Source: Candidatus Gastranaerophilales bacterium (GTDB taxonomy: Bacteria; Cyanobacteriota; Vampirovibrionia; Gastranaerophilales; JAILCC01). From it: DNA of 64,000 nucleotides. The position numbers were made by a program, and so were the translations under genes. The notes beneath the pieces were generated by a model. That model ran no database searches, had not been told where the DNA came from, and saw only the letters and a program-made list of their open reading frames with translations. Of this stretch, positions 24,328 to 26,500 are shown piece by piece; the stretch's first letter is position 1, and the number at the start of each line of letters is the position of its first letter. The stretch is from the NCBI GenBank assembly GCA_045598245.1, contig JAZLLQ010000035.1, positions 5,579 through 69,578 of the forward strand. Reading direction: 5' to 3'.

Positions 24328-26022
24328 CTATTTATTAGTTTCCTGATTTTTATTGAAAAGTTTTACAATTTTATCTGCGGCGGGGGTAGCAAGCACAGGA
24401 CCGAGATATCTGAATGCGAATGTTGTTGTAAGCATTTTGCTTGCACATTTCCAAGCCTCATCGTGGTCATAGTTTAACTTGTTACCTATTAAACCTGAAT
24501 GGAACTTCTTGAGTGTATCAAAAATAGGTGTAGAGATGCGTTCTATATATTTACTTGCAAACAAAGAAAATACAGCAACAACTGCCATGTTAGTACATAA
24601 TGCAGGTTTTCTTTCAGGTTCTATTTCTTTGTTGCGTATTGTATTTATAATGTATAAGCAACTTCCAAAAATAGCTGCAATGTTTGGCAAATTGCTGATA
24701 TATGCATTTGCATCTGCTTTTTTAAGGATTTTACCTGTTTTATCACGTGTTGGGACAACCCATTGATATTGTTTGCTTGTCGCATCTTCAAGTAAAGTAT
24801 TTATTTTCTTTGAATAAGCATCAGATAATGTTATTTTTCTGAAAAGTTTTTCAAATGCAGCTGATACAGGTTTACTGTAACATTTGTCATAAATATCTTG
24901 AAGAGATTTTCCTAAACCTGAAAAAGAAACCTGCTTTTGAGGTATAGCAGGTTTCTTTTTAAATTGTTCATATGTTGTACTTTGAGCTACATTAGCAGAT
25001 ACAGTATTTTTAGATGCAGATTGCATGTTTTGTTTTGTATCTGCTAAAGACATGCTCTTTGTATTCTGATTTTTGCCTTTAGCTTTTGATTTTTTATGAT
25101 TAGGGAATAAGACACGCATAATTTTAGGAATTGACCAAATCATAATGCCTGCTGTTAGCGGGAAGAGGATAATTTTACTTGAGAAGTTAACAAGATATTT
25201 TGTTTTATCGGCTCCTGCTGACGTTTTTAATTTATAAGCACCGTTGTTCATAAATTCCAACGATTCATGCACCAAGAAATGGTGTTTTTTCTCAATGCCG
25301 TTAAATCTGTTCTTTTCAAAGATATCTTTTAATTTATCGGAATAATTCTTTGCTAAATCTGACCACTGTTTTTGCTCTGCGGTATTATCACCTAAAAGTA
25401 TTTGGTTAATCTTGTCATGCCCTTCCCCTTTTGCTATGTATTTTTTCAAATATCCAAAAATATTTCCGCCATCTAATTCTTTTTTAAATTCTTCAGGAGA
25501 AGGTATAACTTTTCTTTCAACAAGTTTACCTATTAATTTTTTATTTTTGGGGTCATTGTAGAATTGTACGAACGTGTTTTTGACATTTTCACCATTGATT
25601 GAAATAAGTATATTATCTAAACTGTTTCTTATCGGTTCAAAAAGTGCATGTGCAAAAATTAAAGTGGTAATACCGCTTGCGATAGATTGTGCAGAAGCAT
25701 ATTGTTTATCTTCCATTTTTGCTCCCGGCGTGAATAATATTGTAAGAGGTCTTGCCGTACATGTTATTAACAGTGCAATAAGTGCCTCAAACATTCCCGG
25801 GTTTTCAATTGCGGATTTTAAAAATTTGTTGAAATGTTTTGATGTAAGTTCTTTTTTGACGGTTTTACTTGCAATGAGTCTGTTTGCAAAAGATTCCGCC
25901 ATAGTTTCAAGACTACCAAATGCAGGCTGCCGTTTTTGAGAATACATATAATTTGCCCTGCTATTATCCCTTTGGGATTTTAACGGGTAATTATTAATGC
26001 TTTTATCAAAAATGACGTTCAT
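24328..26022 (-). CDS. Hypothetical polytopic membrane protein (564 aa)
   Basis: Several hydrophobic helices with polar linkers, plus AFGSL and SFSGL motifs. Last gene in the same-strand series after the calpain-like gene. Confidence 0.65.
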   Translation of the reverse strand: MNVIFDKSINNYPLKSQRDNSRANYMYSQKRQPAFGSLETMAESFANRLIASKTVKKELTSKHFNKFLKSAIENPGMFEALIALLITCTARPLTILFTPGAKMEDKQYASAQSIASGITTLIFAHALFEPIRNSLDNILISINGENVKNTFVQFYNDPKNKKLIGKLVERKVIPSPEEFKKELDGGNIFGYLKKYIAKGEGHDKINQILLGDNTAEQKQWSDLAKNYSDKLKDIFEKNRFNGIEKKHHFLVHESLEFMNNGAYKLKTSAGADKTKYLVNFSSKIILFPLTAGIMIWSIPKIMRVLFPNHKKSKAKGKNQNTKSMSLADTKQNMQSASKNTVSANVAQSTTYEQFKKKPAIPQKQVSFSGLGKSLQDIYDKCYSKPVSAAFEKLFRKITLSDAYSKKINTLLEDATSKQYQWVVPTRDKTGKILKKADANAYISNLPNIAAIFGSCLYIINTIRNKEIEPERKPALCTNMAVVAVFSLFASKYIERISTPIFDTLKKFHSGLIGNKLNYDHDEAWKCASKMLTTTFAFRYLGPVLATPAADKIVKLFNKNQETNK

Positions 26023-26161
26023 TTTTCAGCCTACTACCATCTACATTCATTTTAAACCAAAACAAACTTTTTTTTGCCATGCTTAAATGAATTTGATACA
26101 AAACTTAAAGTAGAAGTTTGCCAAAAAATAATTAGTTCAATAACAGGTAAAATTGTAAATA

Positions 26162-26500
26162 TTAGGACTCTTTTTTTGCAGGCATGTTATCCAAAAGCCA
26201 ACCTAAGCCTCTTTCACGCATATCGCCATGAACTTTTGCAATTTCCGCTTCAGTTGTTGAGGTATCGTCATTTACCTGAAGTTGAATAGTTTTGATATTG
26301 TTTAGGAATGCAAGTTTCTTTGCGAATAATGGTGCAATAACTTTAGGATTTGATTCCTGCATAGCTTTAGAAAGATTTTCATAACCAATGTTAAGAAGTC
26401 TTACTTTCTCGCGCAGGAACGGAGTAACATCCTGTTGTTTTTCAAGTCCGTTTTTTATATTCAATTCAATTTCTTCAAATTCTTTTTGTAAATCGCTCAT
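26162..26500 (-). CDS. Hypothetical small helical protein (112 aa)
   Basis: The RBS aaggaa is present. The gene starts 32 nt downstream of the calpain-like gene's stop. Confidence 0.65.
   Translation of the reverse strand: MSDLQKEFEEIELNIKNGLEKQQDVTPFLREKVRLLNIGYENLSKAMQESNPKVIAPLFAKKLAFLNNIKTIQLQVNDDTSTTEAEIAKVHGDMRERGLGWLLDNMPAKKES

Follow-up and report, generated by a model that had tools for sequence, protein, structure and literature searches.

A Putative Calpain-Like Protease/Partner Gene Cassette next to a Probably Independent Membrane Protein Gene in a Gastranaerophilales Genome

Layout of the Locus

The stretch of DNA analyzed here, 64,000 nucleotides (nt) of contig JAZLLQ010000035.1 from a "Candidatus Gastranaerophilales" bacterium with a genomic G+C content of ~33%, is referred to below as the window, which always means its full length. 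Three consecutive open reading frames (ORFs) on its minus strand, each with an ATG start in the ORF listing, are the subject of this work: a gene for a giant protein of 1187 amino acids (aa) at positions 26533 to 30096, a gene for a small protein of 112 aa at 26162 to 26500, and a gene for a predicted membrane protein of 564 aa at 24328 to 26022. The giant and small genes are separated by 32 nt (26501 to 26532), and the small and membrane genes are separated by 139 nt (26023 to 26161). No terminator-like sites were found by a consensus scan of the minus strand between positions 23500 and 31500, and in folding, the 158-nt RNA made up of the final 19 nt of the small ORF plus the entire 139-nt gap is not more stable than shuffled sequences (z = +1.04). 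The original prediction, which had united the three genes into a possible module, was exact with respect to the three ORFs, both gap lengths, and the observation that no terminator is visible, as confirmed by relisting the ORFs and by the scan.

Each of the three ORFs has homologues, and all of them are, judging from these sequence comparisons, real genes. Scans of the three proteins against Pfam, NCBIfam, PDB sequences, and PADLOC returned no significant match. The explanation that fits the data best, and that has about an even chance of being correct as a whole, is that the locus combines two separate units, a protease/partner cassette made up of the giant and small genes and an unrelated membrane protein gene.

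The Giant and Small Genes Travel Together

The loci compared with the window are labeled L001 to L029, and L001/L011, L005/L006, L009/L010, L022/L023/L024, and L027/L028 were each counted as one distinct locus. Loci of the small-protein family were collected from a metagenome scan with an alignment of the small proteins, a full HMMER search, and look-ups of genomic context. In 7 distinct loci, the small gene directly follows a calpain-like C terminus, with gaps that range from 17 to 105 nt (32 nt in the window, 36 in L008, 21 in L009/L010, 17 in L019, 105 in L022/L023/L024, 32 in L026, and 20 in L027/L028). The closest counterpart is L008, which encodes P0019, the sole full-length homologue of the giant protein (48% identity), followed 36 nt later by a 113-aa ORF whose product shares 50% identity with the 112-aa protein. 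The genes downstream of this pair encode DUF4330, Wzy_C, and other proteins, with no membrane gene among them, and the next gene after the pair codes for a kinase in L022, a 267-aa ORF in L026, and GAPDH in L027. In all four pairs for which the downstream flank was available (L008, L022, L026, and L027), that flank is unrelated to the membrane gene.

In blastp comparisons, the C termini of the upstream proteins from L019, L022, L026, and L027 are 30 to 37% identical to that of the giant protein (E values from 1e-39 to 1e-62). The part that the giant protein has in common with the L026 (815 aa), L022 (1163 aa), and L027 (2153 aa) proteins is limited to the last ~330 to 410 residues, except that the similarity of the L027 protein extends to the N-terminal 108 residues and to the RTX-like region. 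The remaining matches to the giant protein have only the RTX repeats in common with it. The N-terminal 500 to 1800 residues of the upstream protein vary between loci, and outside the window they combine EF-hands with beta-repeats or YD-like repeats with a Pro/Thr linker. The YD-like repeats of L022 read "YDKNGK," and L026 has EF-hands along with "SNGK" repeats. Because no part of the giant protein other than the C-terminal module is common to all partner-carrying homologues, the small gene tracks this module and not the rest of the protein. The exchange of N termini, coupled with coinheritance of the protease module and the small gene, in turn argues that the small protein is the partner of the protease module.

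Across six pairs, the pairwise identities between protease modules correlate with those between the small proteins (r = 0.60; Mantel p = 0.053), and the two subfamilies of small proteins coincide with two subfamilies of protease domains. Taken together, these sequence comparisons make it very likely that the giant and small genes constitute a two-gene cassette (26162 to 30096, minus strand). The comparison of synteny suggested with the original prediction thus splits the module: the giant and 112-aa genes stay side by side wherever closer relatives of the small gene were found (7 loci), and the membrane gene lies elsewhere.

The L008 pair is located directly after pgk (L008, 1303 to 2499), and the pgk gene of the window (15844 to 17040, minus strand) lies ~10 kb from the pair. 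The different housekeeping contexts of the cassette in different genomes suggest its relocation. Matches that would trace the protease module to a plasmid or a phage were looked for and not found, and a scan of GTDB genomes with the C terminus of the giant protein yielded no locus.

Domain Architecture of the Giant Protein

The giant protein combines an N-terminal domain, RTX-like repeats, an EF-hand, and a C-terminal calpain-like domain. Its N-terminal ~108 residues are conserved, with residues 1 to 108 matching the L027 protein at 47% identity in blastp. Stretches of RTX-like calcium-binding repeats, with visible GGDGDD and GGSGAD motifs, cover approximately residues 345 to 470 and 560 to 630. 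The region matches an NCBIfam calcium-repeat model with an E value of 5.7e-8, yet scores 32 bits against a family cutoff of 625, and it shows a weak match to a hemolysin in the PDB (E = 0.017); the partial homologues of the giant protein carry PF00353. The EF-hand, at residues 735 to 770, corresponds to a weak Pfam match to EF-hand_7 (E = 0.0029). Among the full-length homologues, 4 of 5 combine the calpain-like domain with calcium-binding modules of either kind (EF-hands or RTX-like repeats). No signal peptide is evident by eye at the N termini of the giant proteins.

The calpain-like module itself, delineated by blastp, occupies residues 826 to 1187 (26536 to 27621, minus strand). Its candidate catalytic residues, Cys932 (27301 to 27303), His1141 (26674 to 26676), and Asn1159 (26620 to 26622), are invariant in all six aligned protease domains. 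Calpains carry these residues in the motifs QGxLGDCW..., GHAYS, and NPWG. The same order and motif context are found here, as QQNGLEDCFF around Cys932, SHQYAIE around His1141, and KNPYD around Asn1159, and the L022 protein has QGGIGDCYF, SHAYSIE, and NPW at these places. Peptidase_C2 (PF00648) is the only or the top Pfam family for the domains from the window, L008, and L019 (E values of 1.2e-3, 1.4e-4, and 2.9e-3, respectively), and the matches span both the Cys region and the His/Asn region; the corresponding scores are 14.6 bits for the full giant protein, 18.4 for its C terminus, 21.5 for L008, and 17.2 for L019. In a PDB profile search with the six domains, the top places are taken by calpain-3, calpain-9, and calpain-8, at nonsignificant E values of 0.023 to 0.7 (0.023 for calpain-3), and the profile alignment pairs ...DCFF with GDCWF and SHQYAIE...NPW with GHAYSV...NPWG. 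Foldseek searches with an AlphaFold model of poor quality (predicted local distance difference test score [pLDDT] of 52.6) recovered mostly the cores of calpain-1, -2, -3, -5, -8, and -9 along with other papain-fold peptidases; for the calpain cores, the probability was 0.9 to 1.0, with E values of 2e-3 or worse and template modeling (TM) scores of at most 0.28.

Overall, the C-terminal module is probably a divergent papain-fold protease of the calpain-like kind, and it is likely to be active. The term "calpain-like," as used in the original prediction, is consistent with the motifs, the triad, and the top rank of calpains, and every score behind it is below threshold.

Near some of the compared loci are genes for further proteins that lack Pfam domains and are very large or unannotated (L001, 2732 to 6418; L022, 1 to 3646), and some of these proteins carry YD-like "Y(D/N)xNG" repeats. 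A 1228-aa protein from L001 was considered as a possible homologue of the giant protein and rejected, as no homology was found.

The Small Partner Protein and the Spacer

The 112-aa protein, encoded directly downstream of the calpain-like C terminus, represents a rare unnamed family. An HMMER search against 1.84 billion representative sequences returned 16 matches, of which ~12 are real clusters, with proteins of 95 to 138 aa. Homologues of the 112-aa protein are 27 to 54% identical to it and retain the motifs K.RLL...Y, FLNNIK, and MRE.G.GW.LDN.P; because these motifs are conserved, the small ORF appears to encode a real protein under constraint. The protein had no match in Pfam, NCBIfam, or the PDB, and its two PADLOC matches, to DrmC (E = 0.0052) and PDC-M02B (E = 0.0061), are weak and below threshold. 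A Pfam scan of six family members at E values up to 10 revealed no FliS, FliT, FlgN, or other chaperone family; one member of the six matched FlgK_D1 (E = 0.077), which is not a chaperone family. There is no obvious EF-hand loop motif by eye, and no EF-hand among the Pfam families listed. The isoelectric points (pI) of the small proteins range from 4.5 to 9.2, being acidic (4.5 to 5.5) in four of the six and reaching 9.2 in L008.

Two elements can be read from the sequence of the 32-nt spacer upstream of the small gene: a ribosome-binding site, AAGGA, and, at positions 26522 to 26530 on the minus strand, 21 nt before the ATG codon, the extended -10-like box TGTTATAAT. The spacer in L008 is similar, with TATAAT at the same place. 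The box was not listed by the consensus scan because it has no -35 element; it could nevertheless be an internal promoter that allows separate expression of the small gene.

Orphan small genes that are not preceded by a calpain-like gene were found in L020, L021, and L029. Those in L020 (6222 to 8330) and L021 (4555 to 6696), which come from near-identical lineages, encode proteins with 35 to 38% identity to the 112-aa protein and are transcribed divergently from a 156- or 201-aa ORF and a flagellin operon; the small gene is followed by a thioesterase gene, and no calpain-like gene is nearby. These standalone genes could be orphan copies or could hint at a flagellar link. The 156-aa genes of L001 and L021 are unrelated.

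The Membrane Protein Gene as a Probable Separate Unit

The 564-aa protein has 13 near-full-length homologues (548 to 577 aa, 38 to 64% identity) and a 396-aa partial match, and its family occurs in Gastranaerophilales-type genomes. In the window, its gene is convergent with ispF (23796 to 24326, plus strand; YgbB in Pfam, E = 4e-64), upstream of which is a gene for a 280-aa protein (22999 to 23841, plus strand). This block of the membrane gene, the convergent ispF, and a gene for a protein of 265 to 284 aa is kept in six distinct relatives (L001/L011, L002, L005/L006, L007, L012, and L015), in none of which was a homologue of the giant or small gene found within the 7 to 10 kb fetched around the membrane gene. 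The genes upstream of the membrane gene differ between these relatives: in L001, L002, and L012, there is an opposite-strand PRK gene, preceded by the genes for PDH and DAHP synthase; in L007, the opposite-strand TilS and Hpt genes; and in L015, a 350-aa ORF on the same strand. Two samples contributed both a cassette and a membrane gene, in each case on different contigs (the cassette in L008 and the membrane gene in L005; the cassette in L027 and the membrane gene in L002). The predicted three-gene module is not supported by these data, as the membrane gene never lies beside the pair in any other locus examined, neither in the six relatives with the membrane gene nor in the four flanked pairs.

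A conserved noncoding region of ~87 nt (26023 to 26109, minus strand) is located immediately upstream of the membrane gene. In a DNA alignment of seven loci (the window, L001, L002, L005, L007, L012, and L015), this region has 47 invariant columns, which include the blocks TTGTATC..AAA, GCAAAAAA, ATGTTTTG.TTTAAAAT, and GTAG.TGGTA.TAGGCTG. The mean pairwise identity is 75% in the 85 nt upstream of the gene, compared to 61% in the coding sequence and 46% in the next 85 nt upstream, and the conservation persists even though the upstream neighbors differ and are mostly on the opposite strand. This pattern suggests that a promoter and 5' leader of the gene's own are contained in positions 26023 to 26109, and since the conserved block fills most of the 139-nt gap, the membrane gene very likely brings both with it. 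The region may be a cis-regulatory element of a new sort or a protein-binding leader. A structured RNA was considered for the leader and rejected, given the lack of an Rfam match, of a stable fold (see the z value above), and of covariation. With respect to independent signals separating the three genes, to which the original prediction had drawn attention, the conserved upstream region argues for a separate promoter, and no terminator was seen. In all, the membrane gene appears to be a conserved housekeeping gene fixed next to ispF, and on this comparative evidence it is quite likely to be independent of the giant/small pair.

The 564-aa protein consists of an N-terminal half (residues 1 to 310), a linker (residues 311 to 371, nt 24910 to 25092), and a C-terminal half (residues 372 to 564). 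Five hydrophobic segments are conserved in it (Kyte-Doolittle maximum, 1.81), and inspection by eye shows no evident signal peptide. AlphaFold modeling with 13 sequences (pLDDT of 71.2, predicted TM score of 0.63) gave a structure that is almost all helical, with long helices, two short beta-hairpins, and a pLDDT below 50 in the linker. The description of the protein as a polytopic membrane protein agrees with the hydrophobic segments and the helical model and is only moderately supported. It has no Pfam family, and Foldseek searches of its model against the PDB gave no match at E values up to 0.001; the rows with alpha-pore-forming toxins and G protein-coupled receptors in the Foldseek output are meaningless (TM scores of ~0.1).

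In distant relatives, the two halves are encoded by separate adjacent ORFs of ~245 to 272 aa and 225 to 250 aa (L013, 6704 to 8212; L014, 4211 to 5699; L016, 1926 to 3343), which overlap by 4 nt in L016. The Gastranaerophilales protein is therefore seen as a fusion of these halves through a disordered low-complexity linker. An internal duplication was rejected, as the hhalign comparison of the two halves was nonsignificant (E = 0.046, probability of 1%). No consistent functional neighbor was found for the distant relatives, nor was any conserved one found beyond ispF. In L003 (10001 to 20207), which encodes the most distant full-length relative (38% identity), the membrane gene is located between lpx genes and a flagellar cluster, directly upstream of and on the same strand as an SLT gene and a cluster of rod, ring, and hook-associated genes (flgF/G/A/H/I, the gene for a rod-binding protein, flgN, flgK, and an flgL-like gene). 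Weak Rfam matches to Thr_leader on both strands at 24887 to 24993, in the linker-coding part of the membrane gene, are below threshold (E values of 0.008 and 0.029; scores of 31 and 29 bits, where the gathering score is 55) and most likely are chance matches to A-rich sequence.

Other Features of the Window

On the same strand, upstream of the giant gene, the window encodes smc, scpA, scpB, lysS, and an rfbA-like gene, the last of these also recognized by Pfam. The 280-aa gene of the conserved ispF block shows a weak prepilin-type methylation motif at the N terminus (N_methyl in Pfam, with a subthreshold E value of 0.0015), so its product may be a pilin or pseudopilin-like protein. A 1033-aa ORF on the minus strand (59421 to 62522), without a Pfam match, is located where the composition of the window is most skewed; the 2-kb bin from 60001 to 62000 has a G+C fraction of 0.396 and an AT skew of -0.40.

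Comparison with Known Systems

Bacterial calpain homologues are rare and essentially uncharacterized biochemically; 14 of 53 cyanobacterial genomes encode them, and in the homologue from Gloeobacter violaceus, the peptidase is preceded on its N-terminal side by eight HemolysinCabind repeats (Rawlings 2015, PMC4631099). The giant protein resembles the Gloeobacter homologue in its host of cyanobacterial lineage, in the location of the Cys-His-Asn core at the C terminus of a large protein, in the RTX-like repeats N-terminal to the peptidase, and in the lack of a signal peptide by eye. Unlike that homologue, it has an additional EF-hand and a conserved N-terminal domain, and the module is always followed by a small partner, none being mentioned in the passages of PMC4631099 that were searched. 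No report of a cognate partner protein for bacterial calpain homologues was found.

Polymorphic toxins include papain-like C-terminal toxin domains with immunity genes located downstream (Zhang et al. 2012, PMC3482391), and Cpe1/Cpi1 (PMC12136450) is an example of a papain-like protease toxin that has its own immunity protein. The cassette shares with polymorphic toxins the large repeat protein with an extreme C-terminal enzymatic domain, the small same-strand gene immediately downstream (in 7 loci), the swapping of N-terminal regions between homologues, and the orphan small genes. It differs from them in that neither a recognized trafficking domain nor a linked secretion system was found, the small protein matches no Pfam Imm family, and only the reverse type of exchange was seen, with the same C-terminal module on different N termini. 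A calpain-type domain is absent from the papain-like toxin clades of Zhang et al. (PMC3482391), where the word "calpain" does not occur.

The operon layout is also like that of the staphopain-staphostatin pairs, with which no sequence similarity was detected in Pfam or PDB sequence searches. In those pairs (scpA-scpB and sspB-sspC), the gene for a papain-fold protease is followed in the same operon by one for a cytoplasmic protector of ~110 aa; staphopains have signal peptides and prodomains, and staphostatins are beta-barrels. Unlike staphostatins, the 112-aa partner appears from its sequence to be helical, and unlike staphopains, the protease is here the C-terminal domain of a giant protein without a signal peptide evident by eye. 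Calpastatin, the calpain inhibitor, is a long disordered protein with multiple repeats and a TIPPxYR motif. A calpain-type core with calcium-binding modules and, under the favored hypothesis, a dedicated inhibitor would parallel the calpain-calpastatin system; the 112-aa protein lacks TIPPxYR and is unrelated in sequence, which makes this a functional analogy only. The chaperone/effector/translocon arrangement of the type III secretion system (T3SS) is not matched by the locus, where the co-location of three genes does not hold and the small partner has no chaperone-family or PDB match.

In summary, what is known is the protease/partner or toxin/immunity layout, and what is new is its combination of a calpain-type domain with an unnamed partner family.

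Proposed Function and Alternative Explanations

In the proposed scheme, the first unit would consist of a large protein with a C-terminal cysteine protease of ~330 to 360 residues and the 112-aa partner, which would bind the protease and neutralize it inside the producing cell. The RTX-like and EF-hand modules suggest calcium-dependent folding or activation outside the cell, such that the enzyme would fold and become active only in a calcium-rich environment after export. The second unit (24328 to 26109) would be the lineage-conserved membrane gene, with the cassette merely happening to lie upstream of it in this genome. The role of the small protein as an inhibitor or immunity protein, suggested by analogy, is put forward tentatively, as somewhat less than an even bet. 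It is favored because the layout is that of protease-inhibitor operons and polymorphic toxins, because the partner follows the enzymatic domain and not the N terminus, because there are orphan small genes, which are common for immunity genes, and because the TGTTATAAT box could provide the small gene with expression of its own. The wider proposal is more speculative still: that the 112-aa protein founds a family of dedicated inhibitors for a divergent clade of bacterial calpain-like enzymes, in a new toxin/immunity-type cassette of gut Melainabacteria, a group of nonphotosynthetic cyanobacteria, that has orphan immunity copies in further genomes and is a bacterial functional counterpart of the calpain-calpastatin system.

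Several observations weigh against this scheme. The assignment to calpains is below threshold in every test: the scores of the giant protein's domain and its homologues, 14.6 to 21.5 bits, set them apart from bacterial calpains (MEROPS C2) and do not reach the Peptidase_C2 gathering score of 23.8 bits, and the poor model of the domain was derived from an alignment of two sequences. No known trafficking domain was recognized in the N-terminal region of the giant protein by Pfam or NCBIfam, and no secretion-system genes, those of the type I system included, were found among the window neighbors scanned. Housekeeping genes surround the pair in the window, L008, L022, and L027, with the RND efflux set in L027 being nonadjacent, and there is no C-terminal secretion signal after the RTX repeats, as the C terminus of the giant protein is the protease domain. 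The small protein could not be matched to any known family of inhibitors, immunity proteins, or chaperones, and an N-terminal scaffold with alternative C-terminal tips was not observed in what is a thin sampling. The test for codivergence is marginal (its p value coming from just those six pairs), and codivergence is also expected from simple linkage. Read-through from the pair into the membrane gene is possible, given that the gap has no terminator. Finally, the binding, inhibition, and export ascribed to the pair are drawn from comparison with other systems.

For the giant and small genes, a toxin/immunity or chaperone/effector pair, as envisaged in the original prediction, is still a good interpretation. 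The latter version, in which the small protein would act as an adaptor or export chaperone and maintain the giant protein, or just its C-terminal domain, in a secretion-competent state, similarly to the flagellar FliS, FlgN, and FliT or the class I chaperones of T3SS, perhaps via the flagellar apparatus, would agree with a partner that is small, acidic in four of the six cases, and encoded beside a large protein without a signal peptide evident by eye. The proximity of its L020 and L021 homologues to a divergently transcribed flagellin operon, and the presence of flagellar clusters in some Gastranaerophilales-type genomes, such as L003, point in the same direction. This version is nevertheless judged unlikely: the flagellin adjacency is one independent observation with the genes on opposite strands, no chaperone family was matched even at permissive E values, the L008 protein is basic (pI 9.2), and the small gene tracks the C-terminal enzyme module and not the N terminus, where T3SS-type signals and chaperone-binding sites are usually located. 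A somewhat lower probability still is given to the giant protein being a calpain-like protease that is regulated by Ca2+ and acts inside the cell, with the small protein as its noninhibitory regulatory or stabilizing subunit, in a loose parallel to the calpain small subunit. The association of calcium-binding modules with the calpain-like domain, the lack of a signal peptide by eye, and the lack of secretion genes found nearby are all compatible with such an arrangement, against which stand the small protein's lack of an obvious EF-hand loop, the tendency of RTX-type repeats to fold only at extracellular calcium levels (PMC3034196), and the possibility, raised by Rawlings (2015, PMC4631099), that the Gloeobacter homologue acts outside the cell.

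The pair could also be neighbors by descent only, with no functional link, which could by itself explain the codivergence; the evidence is all comparative, and the sampled lineages may all be Melainabacteria. This is considered improbable, because the adjacency, with gaps of 17 to 36 nt, persists at protein identities of 27 to 54% while the flanks and the N-terminal 500 to 1800 residues are replaced, and the retention of the pair in replaced surroundings is hard to explain without selection acting on the pair itself. Least probable of all is the single cotranscribed chaperone/effector/translocon or toxin/immunity/membrane module of the original prediction, to which the common strand, the lack of terminator-like sites between the genes, and a membrane protein with long helices, hydrophobic hairpins, and no signal peptide by eye had lent some plausibility. 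It is largely refuted by synteny, with the membrane gene absent from beside the pair in every other locus examined, fixed next to ispF, and equipped with its own conserved upstream region.

Implications

The separation of the membrane gene from the giant/small pair prevents its false annotation as a translocon. It also flags a second puzzle, a lineage-conserved fused membrane protein with an unusually conserved upstream region. The conserved protease/partner cassette offers a testable handle on calpain-like enzymes in uncultured gut Melainabacteria; if its interpretation as inhibitor and protease is true, it would represent a new protease-toxin/immunity pair among interbacterial or host-directed effectors.

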